Positions 6,031 through 32,472 are shown, numbered from the stretch's first letter. The stretch: 64,000 bases of DNA from Candidatus Moraniibacteriota bacterium (GCA_030648835.1 JAUSGT010000002.1:501458-565457), one strand, 5' to 3'. A program made the numbers and translations. The notes: generated from the letters alone by a model not told the origin.

Positions 6031-6054
6031 TGCTGTTGTCTTTGAAAGATAAAT

Positions 6055-6747: not shown

Positions 6748-6772
6748 CATAAATGCTAAAAGAGAGTATAAT
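6744..6772 (+). promoter_or_regulatory. Consensus sigma-70-type promoter (TTGACA-17 nt-TATAAT) upstream of the Nudix gene
   Basis: TTGACA at 6744-6749, 17-nt spacer, TATAAT at 6767-6772. GGGGG Shine-Dalgarno before ATG 6852. Confidence 0.6.
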
Positions 6773-6851
6773 ACTACGTTACTCTATTTTTGAGTGATCA
6801 GTTATAATTTGTTGTAACTGTAATGTATTTTTTACATTTAGAGGGGGCCAC

Positions 6852-8900: not shown

Positions 8901-9155
8901 ATGGAACAAACGGAAAACGTTCAGGCAGTAAAAAAAGATGATATTGAGATACGAATTTTTCGGGAAAAATGCATCGGTGCCGCTACGTGTGTTGTCTATG
9001 GTCCATCTACTTTCGATTTGGATGAAAAGAGCATCGCCGTCGTGAAAGAGGGGCAGTGGGATGAGTTGGAGAAGATTATTTCCGCGGCCCAATCCTGTCC
9101 GGTGACAGCTATAGAAATTTATCAAAATGGGAAAAAAATCCATCCCACTACGTAA
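8901..9155 (+). CDS. Small mono-cluster [4Fe-4S] ferredoxin-like protein
   Basis: 'CIGAATCVVYGPSTFDLDE...AAQSCPVTAI' matches the C-x-G-x3-C...C-P pattern of divergent single-cluster ferredoxins (Fer4_13-like). Confidence 0.5.
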   Translation: MEQTENVQAVKKDDIEIRIFREKCIGAATCVVYGPSTFDLDEKSIAVVKEGQWDELEKIISAAQSCPVTAIEIYQNGKKIHPTT

Positions 9156-10890: not shown

Positions 10891-12633
10891 TTACGGTATT
10901 TTCCCTCGGATCACTTGCAAGTTTTCTTGCAAGTTTTTGTTTTGTGGGTCGATTTGCAAAGCTTGCTCTATATATTCCGAGGCCTTTTGAAAATCGCCTT
11001 GATTGAAAGAAATAGCGGCTAGATTCTGATACGACTGCCATAAACGCGGATTGAATTCCAAGGCTTTCTGATAGTTTTCTATAGCCAAATCGATTTTTCC
11101 CATATCACGATATGTGTTGCCCAAATTATGATAAGCATCGGCATAACGAGGGTTTATTTCAACGGCTTTCTTGAATTCTTCCACCGCTTTTTCCGGATTG
11201 CCTTGTCGGGCATAGACATCGCCTAAATTGTTGTGGATAACTTGTCCGGAAGGTGACGTCTTGGCCGTGGCAATCCAAAGTGTATCTTCATTTTTCCAAT
11301 CCATACCTCGGATAATTGTTCGGATAGAGAGGGATAAAATTATAATCACGAAAAGAGCTACAAGCGCGTGCTTATACTTTTCGTTTTTCTCTTGCGCTTT
11401 TTCCCAAACCCAATTAAAAAATATCGCCACGACGACAAAAATTCCGATGGATCCCAGGTAAACATAGCGCTCGGCGACAATCCAGGAAACACCAAGTGGT
11501 GTGAGTGTCGGAGAAAGAGCAATAAGAAAAAAAGATAACCAGAAAAAAACTGTCTTATTCTTTTTCCAAGTGAAAATAATCGCTGCTAAGAATAAAATAA
11601 AAATAAACAGCATAAAAATATAGGTTCCGGAAGAAAATGACATTTCAGTGTGGTATAAAGAGAGTTTGTCCGGCCACAGCAGAAGCTTCAGATAGTTGAT
11701 AATGGCAATCGGTATTTGGACAAAAATCGAATGGATATTTGTATCTTGGTATTCCTCAGTTTTGATAGAGGCCATTCTTTGCCCGATTTTAGAGATATAT
11801 ATAATTGCCCAAATAAAACTCAATCCGGCGTAGGGCAATAGCTTCTTCCAATTATTTTTGAGATTCCCCCAGATAAACTCAAAAATTATAAAAATCAAAA
11901 ATAGCGGTATTATTTTTTCGGAAGCAATAAGCGCTAAAAAAAAGAAGAAATATGACGCAAATAGTCTTTTTTTGTTTATTCTCGTGATAAAAAGAAAAAA
12001 GGAAATTAAAAACATAAAAACCGATAGGGCATATGGCATAGCGGAAATCCAAACAACTGTTTCGGTCAGAACAGGGTGGACAGCAAAAAGAATTGCCGCG
12101 AAAACAGCAATTCTTTTTTTTGAAATAATACTTAAAATAGAAAAGATAAGAAAAACTGAACCGATATGAGAAATAACATTGATTAAGCGAAAGAAGAAAG
12201 GAGATAATCCAAATAAACTAACAATGGTAAAATGAAAGAAGCGTTGCAGGCTCCCCAGTAGTGAAGGATCCAGTATATTGCTAAAATTTTTAATAGTAGC
12301 AGTGCTGCCTGAAATGACCGGGATATCATCCGATACAAAGCCGCTTCCCAGAGAATTGAAATAAATCACAAAAATCAAGAAAAACAATCCGATGAAAATA
12401 AACAAGTTTTTTTGAAAAAATTCGGCAAAAACAAAATCTGTTTGCCGGTTTTCCGGAATATCTCCCGGTGTATTGTTCCGGGTATATTTATTATATTTTT
12501 CTAAGCGCCAGATTTTTTTTAGATATTTTTTGATTATTTCTTGTTCAACGTCCAAGTTCTCAGCAAGCGTTTCTATAGGGAAATGCTTGATGTTTTTATG
12601 GATATATTCTTTCTGTTTCGATGTCAGACCCAT
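10891..12633 (-). CDS. GT-C membrane glycosyltransferase (PMT_2/DUF1736-like, 'FVSDDIP' motif) fused to C-terminal TPR repeats (TMTC-like architecture)
   Basis: About 10 TM helices. Extracytoplasmic 'FVSDDIPVI' acidic motif after TM1. C-terminal TPR units 'AYHNLGNTYRDMGKIDLAIENYQKALEFNP...'. Confidence 0.6.
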   Translation of the reverse strand: MGLTSKQKEYIHKNIKHFPIETLAENLDVEQEIIKKYLKKIWRLEKYNKYTRNNTPGDIPENRQTDFVFAEFFQKNLFIFIGLFFLIFVIYFNSLGSGFVSDDIPVISGSTATIKNFSNILDPSLLGSLQRFFHFTIVSLFGLSPFFFRLINVISHIGSVFLIFSILSIISKKRIAVFAAILFAVHPVLTETVVWISAMPYALSVFMFLISFFLFITRINKKRLFASYFFFFLALIASEKIIPLFLIFIIFEFIWGNLKNNWKKLLPYAGLSFIWAIIYISKIGQRMASIKTEEYQDTNIHSIFVQIPIAIINYLKLLLWPDKLSLYHTEMSFSSGTYIFMLFIFILFLAAIIFTWKKNKTVFFWLSFFLIALSPTLTPLGVSWIVAERYVYLGSIGIFVVVAIFFNWVWEKAQEKNEKYKHALVALFVIIILSLSIRTIIRGMDWKNEDTLWIATAKTSPSGQVIHNNLGDVYARQGNPEKAVEEFKKAVEINPRYADAYHNLGNTYRDMGKIDLAIENYQKALEFNPRLWQSYQNLAAISFNQGDFQKASEYIEQALQIDPQNKNLQENLQVIRGKIP

Positions 12634-12733
12634 AGTATTGTGGCTTTAAAGCAACGTTTCTGCTAGTATTATAGTATATTGCAAACATAAAATCTATAAT
12701 CCGAGTGGGATCAGAGAGAGTACTCTCTTGCCT

Positions 12734-13231
12734 ATGAGTTTACCTATACATTTATTCATTCATTTCTTCTTTGCTTTTGTGGCCGGGGGCATTTCTTGGT
12801 TCTTTTTTGGTAATCCGGTTTTATCCTTTATTTCAGGATTTCTTGGCGGAGTGCTCATTGATTTGGATCATCTTATTGACTATTTTCTGGCTTTTGGCTC
12901 TCGCTGGAATCTCAGTTATTTTATCCGCGGATATCAGTTTTTGAAAAGCGACAAAGTGTATGTATTGTTCCATGGTTGGGAATACGTTATACTGCTGGCA
13001 ATCGTTGTTTGGGCAGTTGGAGCGCAGTCAAGCCTGGGAGTGGCTTTGTTCGCGTTGGGATTAGGGGGATTGTTTCATCTGATTGCGGATACGCTGATCA
13101 ATCACGGGATGTCATTTCGGGCGTACTCGATCCTCTATAGATTGGTGAACAAATTTGAAGTAGAAAAAATAGTGACCCCTGAACATTATCTGGAGCATAT
13201 GAGAGAAAAGCAATCAACTCGTTTTGAATAA
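12734..13231 (+). CDS. Membrane-bound metal-dependent hydrolase-like protein (YdjM/DUF457-like)
   Basis: Polytopic. 'GGVLIDLDHLIDY' and 'HLIADTLINHG' His/Asp clusters resemble DUF457. Confidence 0.45.
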   Translation: MSLPIHLFIHFFFAFVAGGISWFFFGNPVLSFISGFLGGVLIDLDHLIDYFLAFGSRWNLSYFIRGYQFLKSDKVYVLFHGWEYVILLAIVVWAVGAQSSLGVALFALGLGGLFHLIADTLINHGMSFRAYSILYRLVNKFEVEKIVTPEHYLEHMREKQSTRFE

Positions 13232-13235
13232 AAAT

Positions 13236-14093
13236 ATGCTTGTTTCAGTCATTATCACGACTAAGAACGAAGAGAAGAATATAGAGAACTGTCTAAAATC
13301 AATCAAAGAGCAGGGTTACCCTCAAGAATTGATTGAAGTTATTGTTGTTGATAATAATTCTACCGACAAAACAAAAGAAATTGCTCTTCGTTATACTAAC
13401 CAGGTTTTTGATAAGGGCCCGGAAAGATCCGCCCAAAGGAATTTTGGCGTTGAGAAGTCCAAGGGGGAATATTTTCTCTATCTGGATGCGGATATGACTT
13501 TGCATAAAGATGTTATCAAACATTGTGTAGAAAAAATTTCTGTCATTTCCGCTACCTCTCTTGTCATTCCCGCGGAGGCGGGAATCCAGGTTAGTAATCC
13601 CGACATTGTCGCCCTCTATATTTCAGAAATCGTGATGGGCAAAAAGTTTTTTTCCCAAGTTCGCAGGTTTGAACGAAGTTTTTATGACGCGACGGTTATT
13701 GACTGCGCGCGTTTTATCAAGAAAAGCGCTTTTCAAAAAGTAGGAGGCTTTGATGAGAATCTGACTGGTCCGGAAGATTGGGATTTGGATAAAAAATTGC
13801 GGAAAATCGGAACGACAGCTCTCGTGAAGACACCAATATATCATAACGAAGCAGAGTTTGAATTGAGGAAGTATCTGGACAAAAAAGGGTACTATGCCAA
13901 GAAATTTGATACCTATATCGCCAAATGGGGAAAAAATGATCCAGACTTGCAAAAGCAATTCGGCTTGTACTACCGGTTTCTTGGAGTTTTTGTGGAAAAA
14001 GGGAAGTGGAAAAAAATGTTTGCTCACCCACTACTGACTTTTGGCATGTTTTTTCTTCGATTTCTCGTCGGATTGAAGTTTGTGTTGAGATAG
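13236..14093 (+). CDS. GT2 glycosyltransferase
   Basis: 'VSVIITTKNEEKNIENCLKSI', 'EVIVVDNNSTDKT', 'YLDADMTLHKD', 'PEDWDLD'. Confidence 0.7.
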   Translation: MLVSVIITTKNEEKNIENCLKSIKEQGYPQELIEVIVVDNNSTDKTKEIALRYTNQVFDKGPERSAQRNFGVEKSKGEYFLYLDADMTLHKDVIKHCVEKISVISATSLVIPAEAGIQVSNPDIVALYISEIVMGKKFFSQVRRFERSFYDATVIDCARFIKKSAFQKVGGFDENLTGPEDWDLDKKLRKIGTTALVKTPIYHNEAEFELRKYLDKKGYYAKKFDTYIAKWGKNDPDLQKQFGLYYRFLGVFVEKGKWKKMFAHPLLTFGMFFLRFLVGLKFVLR

Positions 14094-14171
14094 GATATTT
14101 TATAAAATAGGTAAGGAAAGTATTCCTGGCTTGGTTAAAGCAAATTCGAACTTTCTTTGGAAAGAAATACT

Positions 14172-15152
14172 ATGCACGAACTACCTATTCAGAAAAAACA
14201 TATCGTTCAACAAAGAGAACTTCCTTCTGAATACGCATCCTATAAACGCGAAGATCTCCCGACTGTTCAAGAAATATGGGAGCAAATTCAGGCTGTCAAC
14301 GGCGAGGTCAATAGAGCTCGAGAGCATAAAAATTTTCAGGAAATACCTGCGGATCAACTGCACCAATGCATTGAGGATTGTCTCAATGAAATCGATGCTA
14401 TAGAGCGAGCGGCTAGAAACAAAGAGAAATGGAAAATTTCTGCAGAAATGGCACAGCGAAGGCATCTGATAGTAAACCTTGCTGCGCCTGGAACCTATTA
14501 TCTGTCATCGAAAAATGATAAATATCGGGATAAGCCATGGGCGACCCTTTTGGATCGGGAAAGAGCGGATACCTCAGCTATCTTGGGGATACAAATTGCC
14601 GCTCAAACAACCGGTCAAAACCATTCTTTGTTTACAAAGTCGCGCATTCTCGATGGTCTTGATCCGGATCTGAACAGGCTCCGCCCTGATGTGCACGAAA
14701 GTATCGAAGCATCTGGGACACATTTTTTGTATATTGGGACTGAACAAGAGGGGGACGCCATTAGAAAAGTTCTTGCCTCACCGACTTCTTTCATTCCTGA
14801 AGATGTGGTCACGATCATTGATCAGTCTATCGGGAATACGCTCGATTCGATACACGCCCTGAAGCAATTTTTGCAGAGTTCCTACCCACCTGGAGAAACA
14901 ACTCACGGAAAGCCTTTGAGTATTGACTTCGTCATGGGAGCTCAGGCTTTGAGGACTTTGCGGATGTGCAATAAATTTGATGTTATTCCTTCAGAGGCTC
15001 TAGTCAACCTTTTTCCGATGGCGACTCCTCAAAGTGGCATAAGAGAATACCCGAAAAATGAAATAAGTGGTACCATCTACTATGCCTTGACAAACGATGC
15101 TTCCTTGAAGCCGGTTCCCTACTCGTTGATGGGGGAAGATAACATCTTATAA
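14172..15152 (+). CDS. Hypothetical protein, possible DUF218 (YdcF/ElyC-like) domain
   Basis: 'EDVVTIIDQSIGNTLDSIHALKQFL' resembles the DUF218 C-terminal motif. Weak. Confidence 0.3.
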   Translation: MHELPIQKKHIVQQRELPSEYASYKREDLPTVQEIWEQIQAVNGEVNRAREHKNFQEIPADQLHQCIEDCLNEIDAIERAARNKEKWKISAEMAQRRHLIVNLAAPGTYYLSSKNDKYRDKPWATLLDRERADTSAILGIQIAAQTTGQNHSLFTKSRILDGLDPDLNRLRPDVHESIEASGTHFLYIGTEQEGDAIRKVLASPTSFIPEDVVTIIDQSIGNTLDSIHALKQFLQSSYPPGETTHGKPLSIDFVMGAQALRTLRMCNKFDVIPSEALVNLFPMATPQSGIREYPKNEISGTIYYALTNDASLKPVPYSLMGEDNIL

Positions 15153-15164
15153 TGGTAAAAAGTT

Positions 15165-15962
15165 ATGAAAGTAGTCATACTAGCTGGAGGTTTGGGGTCA
15201 CGTTTAAGTGAAGAAACGTCAATAAAACCGAAACCGATGGTGGAAATTGGGGGAAAGCCAATTTTGTGGCATATCATGAAAATATATTCCCACTATGGAT
15301 TCAATGATTTTGTCATTTGTTTGGGATACAAGGGCTACTATATAAAAGAATGGTTCAACAACTATTACCTGCATAATAGCGATGTGACATTCGATTTGGA
15401 AAAAAACAGTATACAGTACTGTAAAAATTGGGCGGAAAAGTGGAAAGTGACACTGGTGGATACCGGCGAAGATACTATGACAGGTGGACGCATAAAGAGG
15501 ATCCAAGAATATGTCAATAATGAGACCTTCATGTTGACGTATGGTGATGGTGTGGCTGATATAAATATTATGGAGCTTCTTCAATTTCACAAACAGCATA
15601 AAAAGATAGCGACGGTGACAGCAGTCGTTCCGGAGGGAAGATTTGGCACCCTAAAAATAAATAAAGAAGGTGGTGTCACAATTTTTGGGGAAAAGAAAGA
15701 TAATAAAAATAGAATTAATGGGGGTTTCTTTGTTCTTGAGCCGAAATTTTTTGACTATTTGAAAAATGATGAAACAGTACTTGAAAAAACGCCTCTTGAA
15801 ACACTCGCGGAAGAAGGTGAATTGAAAGCTTTTTTCCATGACGGATTTTGGAAACCTATGGACAGTTTAAAGGATAGGCATACTCTTGAGGGATTATGGG
15901 AAAGCAAACAAGCTCCCTGGAAAATGTGGGAAAATACTCATGATCACTGCAAACATGAATAA
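15165..15962 (+). CDS. rfbF: Glucose-1-phosphate cytidylyltransferase
   Basis: 'MKVVILAGGLGSRLSEETSIKPKPMVEIGGKPILWHIMKIYSHYGFNDFVICLGYKGYYIKEWF' is near-identical in pattern to RfbF/DdhA. Confidence 0.9.
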   Translation: MKVVILAGGLGSRLSEETSIKPKPMVEIGGKPILWHIMKIYSHYGFNDFVICLGYKGYYIKEWFNNYYLHNSDVTFDLEKNSIQYCKNWAEKWKVTLVDTGEDTMTGGRIKRIQEYVNNETFMLTYGDGVADINIMELLQFHKQHKKIATVTAVVPEGRFGTLKINKEGGVTIFGEKKDNKNRINGGFFVLEPKFFDYLKNDETVLEKTPLETLAEEGELKAFFHDGFWKPMDSLKDRHTLEGLWESKQAPWKMWENTHDHCKHE

Positions 15963-17022
15963 TTTTTTCAAAGATAAAAAAGTACTTATTACGGGGCACA
16001 CCGGATTCAAGGGATCTTGGCTTACTCAAGTGTTGTTAAACTGGGGAGCCGAAATCACCGGAGTGGCGCTTGTACCCAGTACGCAACCGAACCTATTTAC
16101 CATCCTGAAGCTCGAAAAAAGAATCAGGAATAATTACTTGGATATTCGAGACTTTCAAAAAGTGAAAGACCTCTTGATGAAGGAAAAACCTGAGATTCTT
16201 TTTCATTTTGCGGCCCAGCCGATCGTGCGAGACAGCTATGACGACCCTTTGAAAACATATACCACCAATACTTTGGGAACAGCCAATGTCTTGCAAGCGA
16301 TCAAAGAAACCGGGTGTGTGAAGTCTGCGGTTATCATTACTACCGATAAAGTATACGAAAATAAAGAATCGCACCATCCGTATAGGGAGAATGATCCGTT
16401 GGGAGGCTATGATCCGTATAGCGCCAGCAAAGCGGCTGCTGATATCATTGCCCAATCCTATATCCGGTCTTTCTTCCATCCGGACGATTTTGGTACAAAA
16501 CACAGCACGCTGGTTGCCGTAGCGCGTGCCGGAAATGTCATCGGAGGAGGCGATTGGTCTCCCTATAGGTTGGTTCCCGACATTGTGAGATCTATTTATG
16601 AAAAAAAAGAAAGAATTATCATCAGGAATCCACAAGCTATCCGTCCATGGGAACATGTGCTGGAACCGCTTTCGGGGTATCTGATGTTGGCGGAGAAGCT
16701 GTATAATGGTGAAAAAAGTATCTCTGGCGCCTGGAATTTCGGTCCGGACGAAGAAAGCTTTGTTTCTGTCGAAAAGCTGGTTGATGAAGCCGTACGAATC
16801 TTGGGGAAAGGGGAGATACAAATCAGCCCAGACGATTCCAAGCATGAAGCCGGTATTCTGAAACTCGATACGAGCAAGGCAAAGAATCTTCTCAGTTGGA
16901 AACCGAGACTCTCTTTCAATGAGAATCTGTCACTGACTTTCGAATGGTATAGAAACTACTATGAAAAAATCGAGGACCCGATTGAATTTACAAATACCCA
17001 GATAGATTCTTTCTTCAAGTAG
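15955..17022 (+). CDS. rfbG: CDP-glucose 4,6-dehydratase
   Basis: 'KKVLITGHTGFKGSWLTQVLLNWGAEITGVAL', 'YSASKAAADII', extended SDR fold. ATG at 15955 overlaps rfbF by 8 nt. Confidence 0.9.
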   Translation: MNNFFKDKKVLITGHTGFKGSWLTQVLLNWGAEITGVALVPSTQPNLFTILKLEKRIRNNYLDIRDFQKVKDLLMKEKPEILFHFAAQPIVRDSYDDPLKTYTTNTLGTANVLQAIKETGCVKSAVIITTDKVYENKESHHPYRENDPLGGYDPYSASKAAADIIAQSYIRSFFHPDDFGTKHSTLVAVARAGNVIGGGDWSPYRLVPDIVRSIYEKKERIIIRNPQAIRPWEHVLEPLSGYLMLAEKLYNGEKSISGAWNFGPDEESFVSVEKLVDEAVRILGKGEIQISPDDSKHEAGILKLDTSKAKNLLSWKPRLSFNENLSLTFEWYRNYYEKIEDPIEFTNTQIDSFFK

Positions 17023-17055
17023 TAATTATTACCTTTTTTGCATCGTAAGGCGGCA

Positions 17056-17084
17056 TTGACATAACTTGTAAAAAATGCTATAAT
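17056..17084 (+). promoter_or_regulatory. Consensus sigma-70-type promoter (TTGACA-17-TATAAT) upstream of a GC-rich inserted gene
   Basis: TTGACA at 17056-17061, 17-nt spacer, TATAAT at 17079-17084. AGGTGA Shine-Dalgarno before GTG 17144. Confidence 0.6.
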
Positions 17085-17143
17085 GGACTTTACCTAAATA
17101 GGTAAAAATGTCCGTTCCAAATTCAATAGAGAAGAGGTGAAAA

Positions 17144-17737
17144 GTGGATAAATTTGCAATAAAGGCTTTAAAGAGCCTTGCAATCGGGCTGGAAACGAAT
17201 TCAGCTACGAAGGACGAGGTGAAAGCAGCCGCCGTGGCAGTACTTGGTTTGGTTGACCCGCGGGAACCGTATGGTTCGGCTCTCTTCAATGCTTTGGCAC
17301 GACTAACCATTTCCGTGTGTGTGGAGATGGTGATCTTGCGAAAAGCTGCGGATTCATCGCAAGAGGTGCTTCTCCGCAAGCGGGGAGCCGACGAGGTCTA
17401 CGCTCATCAATGGCACGCGGTAGGCTCGTCGTTCCGTCCCGGTGACCCAGTAGCCAAAACGAGCGCTCGGGCGCTTCGGGAATTGGGGAATATACCCCTT
17501 CCGTCACCCGTTTTTCGTGGGCACTTCAACTGTCTCACCGAGGAGCGCGGGCACTACGTCCAGTTGATTTACGCCATCGACGCCACGGGTGTGGAAATAC
17601 CCACAATGCCGGGGCATATCGAATGGTTTTCCACTGAGGCCTTGCCCCAAGACCTCGTCGAGAACCACCGCGAAGTAGTGCTTCCGGTGGCTCTCGGACA
17701 CTATGACTCACGCGACATGGAAAGCTTCGTTCGCTGA
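17144..17737 (+). CDS. GC-rich hypothetical protein with degenerate Nudix-like segment
   Basis: GTG start. 'VCVEMVILRK...EVLLRKRG...GSSFRPGDPVAKTSARALRELGN' resembles a Nudix box lacking the catalytic Glu pair. Inserted between rfbG and rfbH with its own promoter. Confidence 0.4.
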   Translation: MDKFAIKALKSLAIGLETNSATKDEVKAAAVAVLGLVDPREPYGSALFNALARLTISVCVEMVILRKAADSSQEVLLRKRGADEVYAHQWHAVGSSFRPGDPVAKTSARALRELGNIPLPSPVFRGHFNCLTEERGHYVQLIYAIDATGVEIPTMPGHIEWFSTEALPQDLVENHREVVLPVALGHYDSRDMESFVR

Positions 17738-17897
17738 TCAGGCGGGGATCGATTCGGCCTTGTGCAAGATATTTGCGCAAGGCCGTTTTATTTATCATAA
17801 AATCTCAGATTTTGAAGAATGACGTATTTGCCGTCTTTTATTGGTTTTTCCTTTCAAACCGTGTATACTATGCATACTAATTACTGAGAGCGGTCCC

Positions 17898-19202
17898 ATG
17901 GATACGTCTTTAAAGGATTCCATAAAAGCAGAATATAACAAGAGATTTCCTCAAAAAAAGTTTATTCCTGGGGAATCGGTAGTGCCCGTTTCAGGGAAGA
18001 TTTTCGATGCACAAGAAATGATTGGAATGACCGAGGCTGTTTTGGAAGGCTGGTGGACTGAGGGCCACGTTGCCGAGGAATTCGAGAAGAAATTGGCTGA
18101 ATTTGTCGGAGTGAAATTCTGTACCACGGTCAACTCGGGTTCTTCCGCCAACTTGACTGCCTTCACCGCCTTGACTTCGCCTTGGCTTGGAGAAAAAAGA
18201 ATCAAAGCGGGTGATGAAGTGATCACAATCGCGGCGAGCTTTCCGACAACTGTCAACCCCATTATTCAAAACGGGTGTGTTCCCGTGTTCGTCGATATCG
18301 AGATGAAGACCCTCTCTATCGATACCTCGCAGATGAAGAAAGCCTTGAGTAAGAAGACACGCGCGGTGATGGTGGCTCATACTTTGGGAAATCCTTTCGA
18401 GGTGAAAAAAGTCCGAGATTTTTGTAAAAAACATCGTCTCTGGTTTATCGAAGATAATTGTGATGGTCTTGGTAGCGAATATGACGGGCAAAGAACCGGT
18501 TCTTTCGGCGATATTTCGACACTCAGCTTTTATCCGGCACATCATATCAGTACTGGTGAAGGGGGCGCTATCTTCACGAACAACGCTCTGCTTCACAAGG
18601 CCATTCGGTCTATCCGTGACTGGGGAAGGGATTGCTGGTGCCCGACGGGGAAAGAAAATACCTGCGGAGTGCGTTTCAATTGGAAACTAGGCGAATTGCC
18701 TCAGGGCTATGATCATAAATATATTTATTCCCATATCGGTTATAACCTCAAGATGACCGATATTCAGGCCGCTTGCGGATTGGCTCAGCTGAAAAAATTG
18801 GACTCATTCATACGGCAGAGGCGAGAGAATTATGCCTCTTTGCGGAAAAAGTTAGCCAAGTTCCATACGTACTTCGATATCGTCGAAGCAACAGAGAAGA
18901 GTAAGCCCAGTTGGTTTGGGCTATTGCTTACTTTGAAAGATGACTGCGGTTTTCAGCGCAAGGACTTCACGCAATACTTGAATACCAAGAAAATAGGCAC
19001 CCGTCTTCTTTTTGCTGGCAATATCACCAAACAACCGTATTTTATCAACTATCAGGTACCCTATCGCAAGATTGGAGATCTCAAGAATACGGATAAAGTG
19101 ATGAACCAAACACTCTGGCTTGGGGTGTATCCGGGCATAACTGAAGAAATGATTGATTGGATTGCCCAATCCTTTGAAGATTACTTTGAACAGTTCAAAT
19201 AA
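17898..19202 (+). CDS. rfbH: CDP-6-deoxy-D-xylo-4-hexulose 3-dehydrase (E1, PMP-dependent, DegT family)
   Basis: 'TVNSGSSANLTAFTALTSP', 'GDEVITIAASFPTTVNPIIQNG', 'SFYPAHHISTGEGG' (His replaces the PLP Lys, the E1/DdhC hallmark), 'RDWGRDCWCPTG', 'GYNLKMTDIQAACGLAQL'. Confidence 0.85.
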   Translation: MDTSLKDSIKAEYNKRFPQKKFIPGESVVPVSGKIFDAQEMIGMTEAVLEGWWTEGHVAEEFEKKLAEFVGVKFCTTVNSGSSANLTAFTALTSPWLGEKRIKAGDEVITIAASFPTTVNPIIQNGCVPVFVDIEMKTLSIDTSQMKKALSKKTRAVMVAHTLGNPFEVKKVRDFCKKHRLWFIEDNCDGLGSEYDGQRTGSFGDISTLSFYPAHHISTGEGGAIFTNNALLHKAIRSIRDWGRDCWCPTGKENTCGVRFNWKLGELPQGYDHKYIYSHIGYNLKMTDIQAACGLAQLKKLDSFIRQRRENYASLRKKLAKFHTYFDIVEATEKSKPSWFGLLLTLKDDCGFQRKDFTQYLNTKKIGTRLLFAGNITKQPYFINYQVPYRKIGDLKNTDKVMNQTLWLGVYPGITEEMIDWIAQSFEDYFEQFK

Positions 19203-19207
19203 AAAAT

Positions 19208-20977
19208 ATGAAAGCATCAGATTATATTATTGATTTTATTCATGAACAAGGCATTGATCATGTTTTCGGCTATATCGGAGGGGCCATTACTCACTTGGTA
19301 GATTCCATGGATAAGTCAACGACCGTCAAATATATTCAGGTGTATCACGAGCAGACAGCGGCATTGGCAGCCGAAGGGTACGCAAAAAATTCCGGAAAAA
19401 CAGGCGTAGCCATGGCAACGAGTGGTCCCGGCGCTACCAATCTCATGACAGGAATAGCGGATGCCTATTTCGATTCCATCCCGACCGTCTTTATCACCGG
19501 CCAGGTCAACACGTACGAATTCAAATATGACAAGCCGATCAGACAGCAGGGATTCCAGGAGACGGATATCGTAAGCATCGTCCAATCAATTACCAAGTAC
19601 GCCACTATCGTCAGTGACCCGAAAAAAATCCGCTATGAGCTTGAGAAAGCGTTTTATATGGCCAAGGAGGGCAGGCCGGGGCCGGTAGTCATCGATATTC
19701 CTATGGATATCCAAAGAACGGACATTGATCCTGAAAAACTTGAGGGTTTCAGCCCAGAGAAAGAAGGGACGCAGGCCGAAGAGGTTTCTGAGGAAGCTTT
19801 TCAGGAAATTATCGCCCTGCTCAAGCGAAGCAAGCGGCCTATCATACTTGCCGGAGGCGGGATTATTCGCGGAAAAGCGGAAAAAGAACTCCTGCAATTT
19901 GCAAAAAATAACCATATTCCTGTAGTCGCGTCACTCATGGGCAAGGGGTGTTTCCCCGAAAATGATGATTTATTCGTGGGTGTTATTGGCGCTTACGGGA
20001 ATCGTTGTGCCAACATCACACTGGCAAATGCTGACCTCTTGTTCGCGCTCGGCTCGAGAATGGACACGAGACAGATCGGTACGCTATTAAAAAGTTTTTT
20101 ACGGGGTGGAAAGATTATTCATATTGATTTGGATAAGAATGAGATTGAATACCACCGGCTTGAAGGCAGGATAAAAATAAGAGCTGACGTAAAAATTTTC
20201 TTGGAAAAGATGAACAATCATCAGGATGCGAAAGAAGCGCAGGAAGAATGGCTCAGTTACATGAGAAAAATCAGAGAAAAGTATTCTCAAGTCAAGGAAG
20301 TTGAAAAGAATTGTGCCAATAAGCTTCCTTACGAAATGATATGGCTCATCGATAAAAATGCCAAAGAAGACCAGATCTATTGCGTGGATGTCGGGCAGAA
20401 CCAGATGTTTGCCTTCCAAGCGCTTCAAATACGCGCTGGTCAGAAATTCTTTACCAGCGGCGGATTGGCACCCATGGGTTGTGCTGTACCATTTGCCGTG
20501 GGGGCGAGTTTTAGCGATGAGAAGAAAAAGAACATCGTGGTTATTACCGGGGACGGTGGACTCCATATATCCGTCCAGGCTCTGATGCTTATTTCCCAAT
20601 ACGATTTACCTATTAAAGTCGTCGTACTGAACAACTATGCTCTGGGTATGATCACTCAGTTTCAGGATCTCTATTTCGACAAAAAAAAGGTGGGTACAAC
20701 AAAAAAGGGCGGCTATGTGGTTCCGAATTTCAAAGCTCTCGCCAGAGCCTACCACCTTCCCTATTACAGGATCGATAAGAAAAACCTCGCAACGTACGGT
20801 GAAATAGTAGGAAAACCCGGACCATGTTTTATAGAGGTCGTCATTCGCGGAACAACGGAGGTCTATCCAAAATTGGAAGTGAATAATCCCATTGAAGATA
20901 TTAGCCCAAAACTCAGCCGGGAAGAGTTAAAGGAAAGTATGATCATCGATCCGATCAGCACTGAAGCCGCCTTCTAA
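19208..20977 (+). CDS. Thiamine-diphosphate-dependent enzyme, acetolactate-synthase-large-subunit-like (candidate YerE-like C-branching enzyme)
   Basis: TPP_enzyme N, central and C domains: 'GYIGGAITHLVDSM', 'GVAMATSGPGATNLMTGIADAYFDSIPTVFITGQV', 'ITGDGGLHISVQALM...VVLNNYALGMI'. Sits directly after rfbFGH. Confidence 0.75.
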   Translation: MKASDYIIDFIHEQGIDHVFGYIGGAITHLVDSMDKSTTVKYIQVYHEQTAALAAEGYAKNSGKTGVAMATSGPGATNLMTGIADAYFDSIPTVFITGQVNTYEFKYDKPIRQQGFQETDIVSIVQSITKYATIVSDPKKIRYELEKAFYMAKEGRPGPVVIDIPMDIQRTDIDPEKLEGFSPEKEGTQAEEVSEEAFQEIIALLKRSKRPIILAGGGIIRGKAEKELLQFAKNNHIPVVASLMGKGCFPENDDLFVGVIGAYGNRCANITLANADLLFALGSRMDTRQIGTLLKSFLRGGKIIHIDLDKNEIEYHRLEGRIKIRADVKIFLEKMNNHQDAKEAQEEWLSYMRKIREKYSQVKEVEKNCANKLPYEMIWLIDKNAKEDQIYCVDVGQNQMFAFQALQIRAGQKFFTSGGLAPMGCAVPFAVGASFSDEKKKNIVVITGDGGLHISVQALMLISQYDLPIKVVVLNNYALGMITQFQDLYFDKKKVGTTKKGGYVVPNFKALARAYHLPYYRIDKKNLATYGEIVGKPGPCFIEVVIRGTTEVYPKLEVNNPIEDISPKLSREELKESMIIDPISTEAAF

Positions 20978-21026
20978 CTACCCATTCCTATTTACCGGTA
21001 ATGAAATACAGGCAGTTGAACATCAT

Positions 21027-21953
21027 ATGAGAAATATAGCCATACTGGGTGCTACAGGATATATTGGAAAGTCTTTGGTTCAGCACTTATCTAGACAAAA
21101 AGAAGATAAGTTTTTTTTATTTGCCAGATCACAGGAAAAGTTGAAAAAACTTTTGTATGTCACTGATCGTAATCCGCTATTTACCACCGGATCATTCCAG
21201 AAATTTTCTGCCGGCCACTATGATGTTGTGATAAATTGTGTTGGGATGGGTAATCCGAATGAGGTAAGGAAGTCAGGAATGAAAATTATTCAAGTTACGG
21301 AAAAATTTGATAATTTGATTTTAAAATACTTAGAGAAGCACCCGAACACACTGTATATAAATTTGAGTAGCGGGGCAGTGTATGGAAAAATAATTGAGAA
21401 GCCTCTGGAAATTACTTCACAATCTGTTATCGACATAAACAACCTTGACTCTGGTGATTATTATGCTATCGCCAAAATGAACTCAGAGGCAAAGCACAGG
21501 GCATTGCCAAATTTCAATATTGTTGATATTAGGGTTTTTTCTTTTTTCAGCCATTTTATTGACTTATCTTCCGGTTATCTCCTGGCTGATATTATAAACT
21601 CTTTGCGGTATAAAAAGGAACTGATAACGAGTCCGGATGATATTATTCGTGATTATGTCGGTGCGGTCGAGCTTTGGGATCTGATGAAACTAATAATGAA
21701 AAAAAGAACGGCGAATGATGTCTTCGATATTTATAGCGCTAAGCCGGTATCGAAATTTGCATTGCTTAAATACTTAAAAAGAAGATACGGATTGCAATAC
21801 TCGATAGTGAAAACTTCTCGGAAACAAAGCCCTACCGGTATCAAAAAATTTTACTATTCAAAAAATAGAAAAGCCAAAAACATAGGCTATTCCCCAAAAA
21901 AAACTTCTTTAGAAATAGTTGATGATGAAATTAAGTACTGTTTACTCCCATGA
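21027..21953 (+). CDS. NAD(P)-dependent epimerase/dehydratase/reductase family protein (candidate YerF-like ketoreductase)
   Basis: 'MRNIAILGATGYIGKSLV' Rossmann motif, 'SSGAVYG'. Atypical SDR fold. Confidence 0.6.
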   Translation: MRNIAILGATGYIGKSLVQHLSRQKEDKFFLFARSQEKLKKLLYVTDRNPLFTTGSFQKFSAGHYDVVINCVGMGNPNEVRKSGMKIIQVTEKFDNLILKYLEKHPNTLYINLSSGAVYGKIIEKPLEITSQSVIDINNLDSGDYYAIAKMNSEAKHRALPNFNIVDIRVFSFFSHFIDLSSGYLLADIINSLRYKKELITSPDDIIRDYVGAVELWDLMKLIMKKRTANDVFDIYSAKPVSKFALLKYLKRRYGLQYSIVKTSRKQSPTGIKKFYYSKNRKAKNIGYSPKKTSLEIVDDEIKYCLLP

Positions 21954-22648
21954 ACATCGAAAAATACTCGGAAGTAGCCCCCCAATATTACCAGGAGGAG
22001 GTTCCTCAACTTCTTGATAAGTACTTACTGAGTACCAAATTTTCGAATATTTTGGATTGTGGATGTGGGGATGGGCCTTTGCTGTATGCTCTCTGCAGGC
22101 GGGAGGATTTTGGCACAAAGAAAATATTTGCCATAGATCTCTCACAAAAACGAATAGAGCTGGTGAAAAAAATAAGCACCAATATTATTGCCACGGTGGA
22201 TAGCGCTGAAGAGATGGACACCATTGCTGACCAAAGCATCGATTTTTTCATCTCTACGCAAGTAATAGAACACGTAGATGACAAAAAAATGATAATGAAA
22301 ATAGCTGAAAAAGTGAAAAGCGGGGGAACAATCTATGTATCCACTGTATTTAAGAAGTGGTATGGCTGGTATTTCTACCGAAATCACGGAACGTGGGTTC
22401 TGGATCCGACTCATTTGAGAGAATACTCTTCCGATGAACAACTCTTGGACTTATTTGATAAGAGAGAATTTGTGTTGTTGGAGAACAGGAAACAACTGCA
22501 ATGGTTTCCTGTTTCTGATTTCTTCATAAAAAGATTGGGGTTGAAAGACAGGAAGCTATATGAAAATAGGCTTATGCAGATCATCCGAAAAGTGAAAATA
22601 CCGATTTTAGGCTATTATAATTGGGAAATTGTCATGAGAAGAGTATGA
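21950..22648 (+). CDS. Class I SAM-dependent methyltransferase
   Basis: 'ILDCGCGDGPLLYAL' motif I, 'STQVIEHVDD', 'KSGGTIYVS'. Confidence 0.7.
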   Translation: MNIEKYSEVAPQYYQEEVPQLLDKYLLSTKFSNILDCGCGDGPLLYALCRREDFGTKKIFAIDLSQKRIELVKKISTNIIATVDSAEEMDTIADQSIDFFISTQVIEHVDDKKMIMKIAEKVKSGGTIYVSTVFKKWYGWYFYRNHGTWVLDPTHLREYSSDEQLLDLFDKREFVLLENRKQLQWFPVSDFFIKRLGLKDRKLYENRLMQIIRKVKIPILGYYNWEIVMRRV

Positions 22649-23700
22649 TGTCTGGCCAAGAACCATTGACAATAAGCGTGGTTATTCCGACGTATAATAT
22701 GGCGCATGTTATTGGTGATACGATCAAGAGCGTCCTCAATCAGTCATACGGAAATTTTGAAATAATCGTTCAAGATAATGATTCTCAGGATAATACCGCG
22801 ACCGTAATCCGATCTTTTGCCGATCCTAGGATCAAATACTTCAAAAACAGCGCTAATCTCGGGTATGCCAAAAATCTTATTGCCGGATGGAAAAATTGCA
22901 CTGGTGATATTCTCTATTTCTTGGGGGCGGATGATGTATTATCAAAAAACGCTCTCAAAGAAACAAGCGCGGCTTTTATGAGAGATGAAAACATCGGAGC
23001 GGTGACGCGGTCGTATTTCTGGTTTCAAGGCTCTACAGAGCATATACGGACTCCGATAAGGGTAACCCCGATACTCAATGAACATCAGGATGAAACAATT
23101 GATATTCATAATATTCAAAAAGCGATGTATGTTATGCATAATGAGATTTTGGGTCAGTTATCAGGCCTGGCTTTTCGGATACAATACTTACAAGAGAGTT
23201 TCTTCACCAGAGAGAACAATTGGATAGCGCATGGATACCCGTTTCTTCATATTTTTAAAAAGCACCCGGTAGTTTTTTTGAAAAATCATCAGGTAGCGGT
23301 GAGAATAGGGGAAAACACGATACGACAAAAAGGGAATACGTTCTATCTCATATCGCCCACAAAACGGTGGATCGAAATGCTGGACGAAATATTGTATGAA
23401 GATGAATTTAAGGAATTAAAAACATGTTTCATTAAAAAAATTATTGCTTCCAATTACGTTGGTCTGGTTCAAATCAAATCCTACGCGGGTATGTATTTCC
23501 TCCTCCGAGAAATTGGTTATTTGCTGAAATATAGGATATCAAATATCTTGAGTGTCAGATTCTGGTTTTTTTCTCTGGGGAGCATAGTGGTTCCCGGCTT
23601 TCTTTTGGGGAGAATGGCTGACTACTACAAAAATCGAATCAACAGTAAAATTATGAAGGAAATTCATTTTGAGTACGATCTAAGCAGTAAACAAACATAA
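22645..23700 (+). CDS. GT2 glycosyltransferase
   Basis: 'ISVVIPTYNMAHVIGDTIKSVLNQSY..FEIIVQDNDSQDNT', 'LGADDVL'. Confidence 0.7.
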   Translation: MMSGQEPLTISVVIPTYNMAHVIGDTIKSVLNQSYGNFEIIVQDNDSQDNTATVIRSFADPRIKYFKNSANLGYAKNLIAGWKNCTGDILYFLGADDVLSKNALKETSAAFMRDENIGAVTRSYFWFQGSTEHIRTPIRVTPILNEHQDETIDIHNIQKAMYVMHNEILGQLSGLAFRIQYLQESFFTRENNWIAHGYPFLHIFKKHPVVFLKNHQVAVRIGENTIRQKGNTFYLISPTKRWIEMLDEILYEDEFKELKTCFIKKIIASNYVGLVQIKSYAGMYFLLREIGYLLKYRISNILSVRFWFFSLGSIVVPGFLLGRMADYYKNRINSKIMKEIHFEYDLSSKQT

Positions 23701-23704
23701 TAGT

Positions 23705-24613
23705 ATGGGATTGACCTCATCCAATTTGAAATTTATCCTAAAGAAAAGCAAGAAGTATGCATTTACCGGCCCTCTTCTGACTTTTGGAAATCAGGATATC
23801 TATGCCACTGCGGAGAATATCAGGCGTTGGGCGAAAGAAGACGATATTCTTTTGTCTCAACCAGAGAAGATTCTGCTTTCGACGAGCGGAGATGTGCCTA
23901 CCATCAACAAAGAGGCGAAAGAGTATATCCATGCCAAAACTTTCTTTGAATTTTTGGGGATCCGAGAAGCTGACTATTACGACATTGACAAATTTGATTT
24001 TGATCGGCCCAAGATCATTCACGACCTGCAGTACCCGGTTGATGCCAAGTATCATGATTTTTTCAATCTTATTGTAGATAGTGGAACATTGGAGCATATC
24101 TTTGACGTGAGAGCGGTGATGGAAAATACCGTGAAAATGACCAAAGTAGGGGGGTATGTGCTGCAATTTATACCCGCTCAAAACTTCTTGAATCACGGAT
24201 TCTATCAATTTTCCCCGACATTTTTTTATGACTTTTTTACAGCCAATGGCTTCGAAATCGTTGAATCTTATCTGATAGAAGTCCGAGGCAGATCGGACAG
24301 ATACCACTCATATGATCAGGAAAAAGATTATACGGGGGTATTTTTCAATCCGCGGAACCGACTGGTGAATTGCTTTCTCTCGAGAAAGGTCAAAAAGGTG
24401 GATCACATAGAACTTCCTGATCAATTCTTTTACAAAAAGCTGGCCGAAGATACGAAAAAAGTTGCACAAGATTTCCGGAAGTCCGGGTTCGACAAGGTAA
24501 GCACGTATTTTCGCTCCTTGATCCCCATCAGATTTCACGGCTTATTTTTTGGATTGTATACGTTTTTGAAAAGGATGTCGTCAAAAAGAAAGTACATTGA
24601 TATAAGAAAATAG
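23705..24613 (+). CDS. Hypothetical protein, possibly divergent SAM-methyltransferase fold
   Basis: 'FNLIVDSGTLEHIFDVRAVMENTVKMTKVGGYVLQFIPA' resembles MTase motifs II-III. No clear GxGxG. Confidence 0.35.
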   Translation: MGLTSSNLKFILKKSKKYAFTGPLLTFGNQDIYATAENIRRWAKEDDILLSQPEKILLSTSGDVPTINKEAKEYIHAKTFFEFLGIREADYYDIDKFDFDRPKIIHDLQYPVDAKYHDFFNLIVDSGTLEHIFDVRAVMENTVKMTKVGGYVLQFIPAQNFLNHGFYQFSPTFFYDFFTANGFEIVESYLIEVRGRSDRYHSYDQEKDYTGVFFNPRNRLVNCFLSRKVKKVDHIELPDQFFYKKLAEDTKKVAQDFRKSGFDKVSTYFRSLIPIRFHGLFFGLYTFLKRMSSKRKYIDIRK

Positions 24614-24614
24614 T

Positions 24615-25838
24615 ATGGAGAACAATGTTCCTCATCTGGCTAAGAAAAAAATAATTTTCATAGCCAATCTTGATACCGGCCAAGGGATGAGCGGTGGGAG
24701 TAGAATCTATTTCGAGTTGCTGAAAAAAATTCCCGAGAATTTTGAGACTTTTTTCTTTGGTTCTCGTGGTACTATCAAACGCCTACAGCAGGAGAACGTG
24801 AAGAATACTACGTTTTTTGAGACGGATAAAAGTGATAAAACGAATCTCTATTCATTGTTTGGTGTTTTCTATCACTCTCTCACAAGGCTTATTAAAGGTA
24901 TTAGTATTGTGAGAAAAGAAAAAGACATAATAGAGAACGCAAACTACGTATTTTCGACTTCAGACTTTCTGCCTGATGTTATTCCGGCGATATTTCTCAA
25001 ATGGAAGCAGCCTCACACAAAATGGATTGCGGCTTTTTATTTTTTTGCACCAAAGCCGTGGCAGAAGGTCAATCCTTACGCGACTTCTATTGCCAGAAGA
25101 ATCATGGGAGTTGGATATTGGCTGACACAGTTACTCAGCTATTGGTTGATAAGAAAATGGGCTGATTTGGTTATTTCCTGTAATGAACTTGACAGGAAAA
25201 TTTTCACACAGGAGGGATTCCCCGCAGAAAAAATCATATCAATCTATGGGGGGGTGGATCTGGATTTTATAAATAGTGTTCCGGCTCCGCAGGAAAAGAG
25301 CTACGACGCTGTATTTATGGCTCGCTTTCATCCCCAGAAAGGACCTTTGACAGCCGTACGGGCTTGGGAAGAGGTTGTGAGAAGTATGCCGCATGCCCAA
25401 TTGGTGATGATTGGCAATGGTTCGGAAGAAGCTCAAGTCATTTCTTTTATTAAAGAAAAACATCTGGAGCAAAATATCACATTGGTAGGCTTTAAGGATG
25501 GAGTAGAGAAGTATACTCTTCTAAAATCCGCTAAAATTTTCCTCCACTCAGCTATTTATGAAACCGGTGGGATGGCGGCAGCCGAAGGCATGGCATGTGG
25601 GCTTCCGGTGGTTGCTTTTGACCAAGAAGGTTTTGAGTATTGCTATCCACAGGGGCTCTTAGCAGTGTCTCCTATAGGGGATTATCGCAAAATGGCGGAG
25701 GCAGTCCTGCAACTGTTGTATAACGAAGAAAAATATAGTACCCTTAAGAACGATGCTCTGGAGCTCGTTTCACGGGAATGGGATTGGAAGAAAAGGGTCT
25801 CTTTTATTCTGGATAAAATGAGAAATTTAGGAGATTAA
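24615..25838 (+). CDS. GT4 glycosyltransferase
   Basis: C-terminal 'FLHSAIYETGGMAAAEGMACGLPVVAFDQEG' (E-x7-E region of GT-B retaining enzymes). Confidence 0.8.
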   Translation: MENNVPHLAKKKIIFIANLDTGQGMSGGSRIYFELLKKIPENFETFFFGSRGTIKRLQQENVKNTTFFETDKSDKTNLYSLFGVFYHSLTRLIKGISIVRKEKDIIENANYVFSTSDFLPDVIPAIFLKWKQPHTKWIAAFYFFAPKPWQKVNPYATSIARRIMGVGYWLTQLLSYWLIRKWADLVISCNELDRKIFTQEGFPAEKIISIYGGVDLDFINSVPAPQEKSYDAVFMARFHPQKGPLTAVRAWEEVVRSMPHAQLVMIGNGSEEAQVISFIKEKHLEQNITLVGFKDGVEKYTLLKSAKIFLHSAIYETGGMAAAEGMACGLPVVAFDQEGFEYCYPQGLLAVSPIGDYRKMAEAVLQLLYNEEKYSTLKNDALELVSREWDWKKRVSFILDKMRNLGD

Positions 25839-25857
25839 TTGGTTTAACTGTTTTTGT

Positions 25858-27105
25858 ATGAAAAGGCAACCGGTAAAAATAGCCAAGCACTGCAGAACAT
25901 GCAAATCGTCGGATTTGGAGAAGATTCTCTCATTAGGCGATATGCCGATGGTGAATAATTTTTTGACTTCGTACCAGTTAGATCAGCCTGAATTGAAGTT
26001 TCCTTTGACAGTCGTTTTTTGTCCGAAGTGCGGTATGGTCGAGACACTGGAAGTGGTGAATCCATCTCTCATGTATACCAACTACGTCTATATCTCGACA
26101 TTCTCCAAAACTATGGCCGATCACTTTGATACGTTGGCCAAGTCGCTTATAGAGCGATTCGGGATGACATCGCGTTCATTGGTGGTAGAGATGGGGAGCA
26201 ACGACGGACTTTTTTTGAAAAAGTTCAAGAAATACGGTGTAAAGGTCCTGGGTGTGGATCCTGCCAAAAACCTTGCGAAAATCGCCAATCAGGAAGGTAT
26301 CGAAACTTTAGATACATTTTTCAGCAAGAAGATCGCCGGTAAAATCGTCAAAGAAAAAGGTCGGGCCTCTCTGGTAATCGGCACCAACGTGTTCGCACAT
26401 ATCGATGATCTTGACGACGTTCTGAAAGGTTTGAATACCGTTTTGAAAAAAGATGGTATTTTTGTTGCAGAATTTCCCTACCTTGTTGATCTGGTTTCCG
26501 GCGTGCAATTCGATACTATCTATCATGAGCACCTGAGTTACTTTTCGATGAAACCATTGGCGCACCTGTTCAATCGTTTCGATCTGGAACTTTTTGATGT
26601 GGAACGAACCCCGGTACATGGCGGATCGGTGATAATCTATGTGAAAAGAAAGGGGATAAAATCGGCGCAAACTGCGCGGCTGAAGCGTTTGTTGGCGGAA
26701 GAGGAAAGGCTAGGAATCCACAAGAAGAAGACTCTTGATGTGTTCGCAAAAAAAGTGCTCGTTATCAAAAGGGATCTCAACAAGCTTCTTGCCAGCTTGA
26801 AGAAAAGAAAAAAGAAGGTTGTGGGTTTTGGAGCTCCGGCCAAAGGCAACATTCTTCTCAACTACTGCGGCATTGATGGCAAACTCATTGATTACTTGAC
26901 GGACAACATCCCGTACAAGCATGGGCTCTATGCGCCAGGAACACATTTGCAAGTTTTCCCAGAGGAGAGAGTAGCGGAAGAACAGCCGGATTATCTCCTT
27001 CTTCTTCCATGGAATTTTAAAAAAGAAATACTTCGTAAGTTGGGGAATTATAGAAAAAAGGGTGGGAAGATTATCATTCCTGTACCAAAAGTTGAAATCA
27101 TTTAG
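25858..27105 (+). CDS. SAM-dependent C-methyltransferase, TylC3/NovU-like (N-terminal Zn ribbon + MTase + C-terminal C-methyltransferase domain)
   Basis: 'CRTCKS....CPKCGMVE' four-Cys zinc ribbon, 'VVEMGSNDGLF' motif I, 'GFGAPAKGNILLNYCGI' C-terminal domain. Confidence 0.6.
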   Translation: MKRQPVKIAKHCRTCKSSDLEKILSLGDMPMVNNFLTSYQLDQPELKFPLTVVFCPKCGMVETLEVVNPSLMYTNYVYISTFSKTMADHFDTLAKSLIERFGMTSRSLVVEMGSNDGLFLKKFKKYGVKVLGVDPAKNLAKIANQEGIETLDTFFSKKIAGKIVKEKGRASLVIGTNVFAHIDDLDDVLKGLNTVLKKDGIFVAEFPYLVDLVSGVQFDTIYHEHLSYFSMKPLAHLFNRFDLELFDVERTPVHGGSVIIYVKRKGIKSAQTARLKRLLAEEERLGIHKKKTLDVFAKKVLVIKRDLNKLLASLKKRKKKVVGFGAPAKGNILLNYCGIDGKLIDYLTDNIPYKHGLYAPGTHLQVFPEERVAEEQPDYLLLLPWNFKKEILRKLGNYRKKGGKIIIPVPKVEII

Positions 27106-27139
27106 AAGTAAAAAATTCAAGGTATAAAAATTTGCTGCA

Positions 27140-28069: not shown

Positions 28070-28070
28070 T

Positions 28071-32438: not shown

Positions 32439-32472
32439 GATAATCAGAAGATGCTTGTATCCGTACTACAGT

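Follow-up and report, generated by a model that had tools for sequence, protein, structure and literature searches.

In a 64-kb stretch of a Candidatus Moranbacteria genome (64,000 nucleotides, hereafter the window), we describe a run of genes that we read, with a probability of about 0.7, as a yersiniose-type cytidine diphosphate (CDP)-sugar cassette within a surface-glycan island. The run encodes a glucose-1-phosphate cytidylyltransferase (RfbF or DdhA), a CDP-glucose 4,6-dehydratase (RfbG or DdhB), the 3-dehydrase E1 (RfbH or DdhC), a thiamine diphosphate (ThDP)-dependent enzyme resembling YerE and a reductase resembling YerF. Carrying this reading are the five enzyme families with their cofactor motifs, the homology of the last two proteins to a gene pair of Yersinia and Pseudomonas, and the conserved linkage of the genes. 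The chemistry is known; the host is new, and so is the architecture, which lacks the DdhD-type reductase E3 and has a conserved Nudix-fold accessory gene.

The host is a tiny, uncultivated and genome-reduced bacterium of the candidate phyla radiation (CPR). Moranbacteria belong to the Parcubacteria and Patescibacteria groups, and surface contact is central to the episymbiotic lifestyle of the Patescibacteria. That a branched dideoxy sugar would be new to this lineage, as the original prediction for this DNA had remarked, is true but trivially so: we know of no surface glycan structure described for any of the Patescibacteria, and we found no literature link between these organisms and dideoxyhexoses or branched sugars. 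In the present genome glycan synthesis takes up at least 64 kb, including what would be a cassette for a rare branched 3,6-dideoxyhexose, and the cassette gives a concrete, testable prediction on Patescibacteria surface chemistry.

Gene content and order of the cassette

Gene assignments are based on open reading frame (ORF) calls on the window and on Pfam and NCBIfam profile searches, in which the curated NCBIfam cut-offs served as equivalog thresholds; the scans took in nearly all large non-nested ORFs of the window. The five genes that had been predicted between positions 15165 and 21953 are all present in one orientation, with matches far beyond chance (Table 1). The supposed run rfbF-rfbG-rfbH keeps its strand and order but not its contiguity, as a 197-amino-acid (aa) Nudix-fold ORF, overlooked at first, splits rfbG from rfbH. 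RfbF is 87% identical to its orthologue in another Patescibacteria locus (L005). The start of rfbG was placed at 15940 by the gene caller (from L001), while the mechanical ORF opens at TTG 15886.

E1 aligns with the structure of the Yersinia pseudotuberculosis enzyme (3bcx) at 545 bits and about 60% identity. In the motif SFYPAHHI, a histidine (H220) occupies the Schiff-base position, and C193, C251, C253 and C261 are intact (Yersinia numbering). H220 and these four cysteine ligands of the [2Fe-2S] cluster are conserved in the window protein and in all ten loci compared. The proposed replacement of the Schiff-base lysine by histidine is thus borne out, and retention of the lysine was not seen.

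The reductase has the Pfam Epimerase fold (1.2e-14), and its translation reads GATGYIG at residues 8-14 and YAIAK, a YxxxK motif, at about 146-150. Along its full length it is homologous to the yerF-position genes of Y. bercovieri (39% identity, E 1e-71) and P. protegens (35%, E 2e-66), which are 44% identical to each other. When the reductase was compared by tblastn with eleven sequences, only the gene directly after the ThDP gene was matched, at seven loci, and never other members of the short-chain dehydrogenase/reductase (SDR) family. A sequence search of the PDB gave nothing below E 0.39.

The gene order agrees with that of Yersinia, as the original prediction had it: both gammaproteobacterial loci (Y. 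bercovieri, L009; P. protegens, L010) read ddhD-ddhA-ddhB-ddhC, ThDP enzyme and a 310-aa SDR, which is the published yersiniose order, and the window matches them apart from ddhD. The order rfbF-rfbG-rfbH-ThDP enzyme-reductase, with or without a following family 2 glycosyltransferase (GT2) gene, is also found in Patescibacteria (L005 and L014), a Saccharibacteria metagenome-assembled genome (MAG; L006), WS2 (L007) and Spirochaetes (L016); a Planctomycetia MAG (L008) and L015 have rearranged versions.

The ThDP-dependent enzyme

The three Pfam domains of the ThDP enzyme each match at about 1e-35 to 1e-37. The protein carries GDG at residue 448 with NN after it and, at 47-49, HEQ with the catalytic Glu. 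Against TIGR00118 it scores 485.7 with a cut-off of 538.35, and it is far below the cut-offs of all other acetohydroxyacid synthase (AHAS) models too. With the same model E. coli IlvI reaches 946.7, a Yersinia YerE-family protein 407 and 5ahk 391, and two further members of the clade of the window enzyme (the window clade) score 494 and 472. Among PDB entries 5ahk is the best match (388 bits), followed by Arabidopsis AHAS (324), E. coli IlvB (312) and 8rph (297), the identity of which as JanthE was confirmed. We take 5ahk to be P. protegens YerE (PpYerE), in view of its identity to Yersinia proteins; a literature search for the code gave no confirmation. It is 83% identical to a protein of the P. 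protegens locus (L010), and with proteins from five Yersinia species it shares 68% identity. The window enzyme shares 37% identity with the YerE homologue of Y. bercovieri; in the set used for the tree its identities are about 38-39% to YerE and about 33-35% to AHAS.

A neighbour-joining tree, built from 48 sequences over 563 columns with E. coli Gcl as the root, places the window clade and the Yersinia/Pseudomonas YerE clade together and apart from IlvB, IlvI and Arabidopsis AHAS in 200 of 200 bootstraps. Inside this sugar-linked group the YerE clade is monophyletic in 200 of 200 replicates and the window clade in 132 of 200, so that by sequence the window enzyme falls outside the characterised YerE clade, in a sister clade. 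In eleven alignment columns, including those of RQQGFQE, the two sugar clades agree with each other and differ from AHAS; the opposite pattern holds for five columns. No ilvN/ilvH or ilvC was detected among the scanned ORFs. Cut-offs, grouping and the lack of ilvN and ilvC nearby agree with the original assignment of the enzyme to YerE rather than to IlvB/IlvG.

The closest match of the ThDP enzyme among GTDB genomes is in a Patescibacteria MAG, with 91% amino-acid identity and synteny at about 78% nucleotide identity. Close homologues carry the public names of Patescibacteria, Bacteroidales, Spirochaetes, Clostridia and Cetobacterium, so that the window clade is widely spread; it forms a pool of uncharacterised, putative ketone-accepting ThDP carboligases for biocatalysis.

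Proposed pathway and length of the branch

In the pathway that we propose, RfbF would form CDP-glucose, which RfbG would oxidise and dehydrate to CDP-4-keto-6-deoxyglucose. E1, with pyridoxamine 5'-phosphate (PMP) and its [2Fe-2S] cluster, would then remove the 3-hydroxyl group to give CDP-4-keto-3,6-dideoxyglucose, using two electrons from a donor that the window does not encode. Next, the YerE-like enzyme would decarboxylate a 2-oxo acid and transfer the acyl-anion equivalent to the C-4 ketone of the CDP-sugar, creating a tertiary alcohol with an acetyl branch. The YerF-like enzyme would reduce the branch ketone to a 1-hydroxyethyl group, and the product would be a CDP-yersiniose-like 4-C-branched 3,6-dideoxyhexose. 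The neighbouring GT2 enzyme would hand the sugar on, and methyltransferases may modify it. Because the ThDP enzyme is about 38% identical to YerE and lies in a sister clade, we infer the donor acid and the exact sugar, as we do the substrates, stereochemistry, electron source and final acceptor glycan.

Of the possible donor acids, pyruvate is the most probable. The clusters for erwiniose, caryophyllose and gastriose and that of R. palustris each have, beside the ThDP gene, the gene of a pyruvate aldolase that builds the long donor (PMC9306805). The profile scans of the window detected no aldolase-family protein, and no aldolase gene lies beside the cassette in L005-L007, L014 or L016; by the retro-biosynthetic logic of the same paper, this absence favours pyruvate and a C2 branch. 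The alternative is a donor that is longer or functionalised, like the 2-oxo acids used by ErwE, MMAR_2332 and MyGE; the branch would then exceed C2, and the product would be a sugar of the erwiniose, caryophyllose or aurantose type. The window clade is indeed distinct from the pyruvate-using Yersinia/Pseudomonas clade and includes proteins of Spirochaetes, and S. aurantia makes the functionalised branched sugar aurantose. The donor range differs greatly from one YerE-like enzyme to another (PMC9306805), and the island holds a B12-radical-SAM (S-adenosylmethionine) enzyme, a C-methyltransferase and three further methyltransferases. However, every long-branch cluster described so far has the aldolase (PMC9306805) that we fail to detect here and in the related loci, and we consider a longer branch unlikely.

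The E1 dehydrase and its electron donor

The original prediction that the window has no DdhD-type E3 agrees with both kinds of search made. With Yersinia and Pseudomonas DdhD as queries, tblastn gave no match in the window or in L001-L008, and no protein with Fer2, FAD_binding_6 or NAD_binding_1 domains was found in the profile scans of the window or in the Pfam lists of L014-L018. Altogether, ten related non-gammaproteobacterial loci are without E3, while ddhD is present in both gammaproteobacterial loci. As His220 and the four cysteines are kept, the E1 proteins of the E3-less loci still need one-electron donors. By analogy with SpnQ, a dehydrase of the E1 type that makes do with general ferredoxin or flavodoxin reductase pairs (PMC8987622), the donor, which is not encoded here, would be a general ferredoxin/flavodoxin system. 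The recurrent absence of E3 outside the gammaproteobacteria thus poses a defined question, namely which electron donor serves E1.

A small ferredoxin of the window had been named as a candidate. This single-cluster Fer4_13 protein is encoded 8.7 kb away, directly upstream of a B12-radical-SAM gene, a pairing conserved in L002, L003 and L005; it is absent from the E3-less loci L006-L008 and L014-L018. It tracks the radical-SAM gene and not E1, and is more simply explained as the partner of the radical-SAM enzyme. We have therefore rejected it as a dedicated substitute for E3, and it stands only as a weak, non-specific candidate donor.

The absence of E3 from the window and the ten related loci could also mean that the deoxygenation at C-3 is left incomplete, in which case CDP-4-keto-6-deoxyglucose would itself be branched to give a 4-C-branched 6-deoxyhexose, or that E1 acts as a transaminase; SpnQ does have aminotransferase activity when the reductase is missing (PMC8987622). 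The strict conservation of H220 and the cluster cysteines in all E3-less loci argues for retained redox chemistry, however, transamination was not observed for E1 itself (review, PMC8987622), and the 64 kb searched are only part of a genome that may encode the donor elsewhere. We regard this outcome as very unlikely.

Strength of the assignment

Several points weigh against a yersiniose-type product. With no E3 here, turnover of E1 remains predicted. With characterised YerE the ThDP enzyme shares only about 38% identity, and its sister clade has no characterised member; in addition, ketone acceptance by two predicted YerE relatives, RhopE and SpirE, has not yet been seen in vitro, according to a review. 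The YerE and YerF references are the syntenic Y. bercovieri and P. protegens homologues, not the literal Y. pseudotuberculosis sequences, and the tree was made by neighbour joining with an AHAS set of three sequences only. JanthE, a characterised YerE-like enzyme, scores below plant AHAS as a match to the window protein, which indicates that 'YerE-like' is not a tight sequence family. Moreover, the sugar C-methyltransferase and the B12-radical-SAM enzyme of the island could alter the final product.

The chance that the window encodes here a normal acetolactate synthase of branched-chain amino acid biosynthesis, merely lying beside sugar genes, is practically nil. The NCBIfam and Pfam models that the ThDP enzyme matches best do have AHAS-like names, and its relatives are often annotated 'acetolactate synthase' in public records, but the cut-offs with their IlvI control, the tree and a gene context that links it to ddhABC and a YerF homologue across phyla effectively refute that identity.

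A Nudix-fold accessory gene between ddhB and ddhC

The sigma-70-like promoter before the ORF between rfbG and rfbH (TTGACA, 17 nt, TATAAT, with a TG extension) is the only 12/12 match in 12500-28500, the hairpin behind the ORF is the top-ranked terminator-like site in the same region, and the GC content of the ORF is 0.56 compared with about 0.42 in the flanks. This promoter, terminator and GC offset had suggested an inserted cassette. A chance or foreign, functionless insertion is nevertheless rejected, as other Patescibacteria (L002-L005) have diverged homologues of about 33% identity at the corresponding place, also between rfbG and rfbH, and L022 has two tandem paralogues in synteny; because of these homologues, we regard the ORF as a conserved accessory gene. 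In L006 and L014 the homologue lies outside the cassette, 2-3 kb downstream. In two Logan contigs (L017 and L018, from SRR22387922 and SRR22387773), a 70% identical homologue fills the slot between rfbG and E1, and the entire rfbG-Nudix-E1 front end is 70-75% identical to that of the window. What follows there is a 3,6-dideoxyhexose back end of the classical kind, made up of an RmlD-like SDR and an RmlC-like epimerase, with no YerE or YerF. It thus seems that front and back ends are swapped as modules. The Nudix-fold gene travels with E1 under either back end, and in Patescibacteria it tracks the DdhA-DdhB-E1 front end.

The Nudix-fold family comprises 624 cluster representatives at E <= 1e-3, and 35 of 40 members match PF00293. 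The AlphaFold2 model of the window protein has a mean predicted local distance difference test score (pLDDT) of 72.7, and Foldseek relates it with a probability of 1.0 to Nudix folds, including the non-catalytic NrtR, MUTYH and AraR and, over the full length, CDP-Chase. The Nudix box of the family reads R-L-x3-E-[FL], the same modification as in E. coli Gmm (ERLTMAELG); the link to Gmm is supported only by hhalign (92%) and by a profile-versus-PDB E of 0.005. In the window copy the box is one residue shorter than the family consensus. A comparison with the second Nudix gene of the window (6852-7562) showed no homology.

In our preferred reading, the protein would be a Gmm-like hydrolase of CDP-hexoses or a binding protein for them. 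As a universal replacement of E3 it is rejected, since the E3-less loci L008, L015 and L016 have no homologue. A bolder idea, which we think quite unlikely, is that the DdhA-DdhB-E1 system of Patescibacteria lost E3 and gained a dedicated Nudix-fold partner with a Gmm-like box; this partner may be a new CDP-hexose glycosyl hydrolase or a sugar-nucleotide-binding factor that is needed for, or controls, E3-independent 3-deoxygenation. If so, ultrasmall episymbionts would decorate their surface with a yersiniose-like sugar by a variant pathway.

The surrounding glycan island

According to the profile scans, nearly all of the window is devoted to glycan biosynthesis. It encodes more than ten GT2/GT4 glycosyltransferases, three PMT/PMT_2 GT-C proteins, two flippase-type proteins, one Wzy_C protein, two UDP-glucose dehydrogenases, a TylC3-type sugar C-methyltransferase and several SAM methyltransferases. 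The cassette is followed by the gene of a class I SAM methyltransferase, the start of which overlaps the reductase stop; it is kept in L002-L004 and not in L005, and it possibly acts in O-methylation of the sugar or glycan. The next gene encodes a GT2 enzyme, a candidate transferase for the CDP-sugar. A GT2 gene comes after the reductase in L005-L007, L009 and L014 as well, and in L015, with the SDR gene upstream, it follows the ThDP gene and a GtrA gene. Directly 5' of rfbF lies a 331-aa soluble ORF (14157-15152) without a Pfam or NCBIfam match; it has no counterpart in L005, in which the GT2 gene and rfbF nearly adjoin.

The pair of ferredoxin and B12-radical-SAM enzyme may C-methylate a sugar of the same glycan, and the TylC3-type enzyme, 93% conserved in L005 and also present in L018, suggests a second, methyl-branched sugar. 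Another nucleotide-sugar module (5059-7562) consists of an SDR dehydratase/epimerase (5059-6030), a nucleotidyltransferase (6055-6747) and the second NUDIX-domain protein (6852-7562). Candidates for extracytoplasmic glycosyltransferases are encoded in regions 41196-47314, 10891-12633 (minus strand), 28053-30803 and 32455-34647; they include three PMT/PMT_2-type GT-C proteins in a row, a polytopic membrane protein that ends in TPR repeats and matches GtrII weakly, and two large polytopic proteins, of 916 and 730 aa, which have no Pfam match. The many candidates of this kind suggest that lipid-carrier-linked sugars are moved outside the cell, possibly onto surface proteins.

Table 1. Features of the cassette and of the glycan island, with positions in the window.
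Feature	Position	Strand	Evidence or remark
Fer4_13 ferredoxin	8901-9155		directly upstream of radical-SAM gene
B12-binding radical-SAM enzyme, 563 aa	9179-10870		94% identical in L005
rfbF/ddhA, glucose-1-phosphate cytidylyltransferase, 265 aa	15165-15962	+	TIGR02623 equivalog, 408.5 bits (cut-off 300)
rfbG/ddhB, CDP-glucose 4,6-dehydratase	15940-17022	+	TIGR02622 equivalog, 464.7 bits (cut-off 278)
Sigma-70-like promoter before Nudix-fold gene	17056-17084	+	consensus match only
Nudix-fold accessory gene, 197 aa, between ddhB and ddhC	17144-17737	+	modified Nudix box
Terminator-like hairpin 3' of Nudix-fold gene	17755-17785	+	14-bp stem and T run; pattern match only
rfbH/ddhC, E1, PMP/[2Fe-2S] CDP-4-keto-6-deoxyglucose 3-dehydrase, 434 aa	17898-19202	+	NF011936, 683 bits (cut-off 423)
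YerE-like ThDP-dependent carboligase (predicted), 589 aa	19208-20977	+	PF02776, PF00205, PF02775
YerF-like NAD(P)H-dependent side-chain ketoreductase (predicted), 308 aa, Rossmann	21027-21953	+	homology to yerF-position genes
Class I SAM methyltransferase	21950-22648	+	Methyltransf_23/31/11
GT2 glycosyltransferase	22645-23700	+	PF00535, 9e-32
TylC3-type NDP-hexose C-methyltransferase	25858-27105		Methyltransf_13 zinc domain and Methyltransf_14

Comparison with known systems

The yersiniose A pathway of Y. pseudotuberculosis O:VI reportedly has the order ddhD-ddhA-ddhB-ddhC-yerE-yerF (Chen, Guo and Liu 1998). The window shares with the yersiniose loci of Yersinia and Pseudomonas the series ddhA, ddhB, ddhC, ThDP enzyme and reductase, followed by GT2; its E1 is about 60% identical to theirs with the same cofactor residues, and its ThDP enzyme (37-39%) and reductase (35-39%) are related to theirs along the full length. 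Unlike these loci, it has no ddhD, it has an additional gene between ddhB and ddhC, namely that of the Nudix-fold protein, flanked by promoter- and terminator-like sites of its own, and its ThDP enzyme belongs to a sister clade. Since the CPR host is of the monoderm type and has no lipopolysaccharide, the acceptor cannot be an O antigen. In the Y. bercovieri locus, ddhDABC-yerEF is followed by genes for GtrA, GT2 and a DUF7024 membrane protein (11632-15267), which is the layout of a Gtr-like three-component glycan modification system and not of an O-antigen polymerisation cluster. GT2 and GtrA genes adjoin the cassette in L014 and L015, too.

The long-branch clusters were compared by description, namely those of ErwE/ErwF from Pectobacterium atrosepticum (erwiniose), MMAR_2332 from M. 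marinum (caryophyllose) and MyGE from M. gastri (PMC9306805). They have in common with the proposed pathway the succession of CDP-4-keto-3,6-dideoxyglucose, ThDP carboligase and NAD(P)H reductase, and they differ from the window in carrying a pyruvate aldolase. SpnQ, of the spinosyn forosamine pathway, is likewise a PMP/[2Fe-2S] 3-dehydrase encoded without a partner reductase; however, its substrate is of the TDP-2,6-dideoxy kind and its gene belongs to a secondary-metabolite cluster of an actinomycete, whereas the window protein is an approximately 60% identical homologue of the CDP-specific E1. Finally, Gmm (WcaH), the GDP-mannose mannosyl hydrolase of the E. coli colanic-acid cluster, resembles the accessory protein in being a small Nudix-fold protein encoded beside a 4,6-dehydratase in a nucleotide-sugar cluster, and it shares with the family the box R-L-x3-E-L/F in place of R-E-U-x-E-E. 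The window protein differs from Gmm in its extra N-terminal helical region and in the loss of one more box residue, and by analogy its predicted substrate would be a CDP-sugar.

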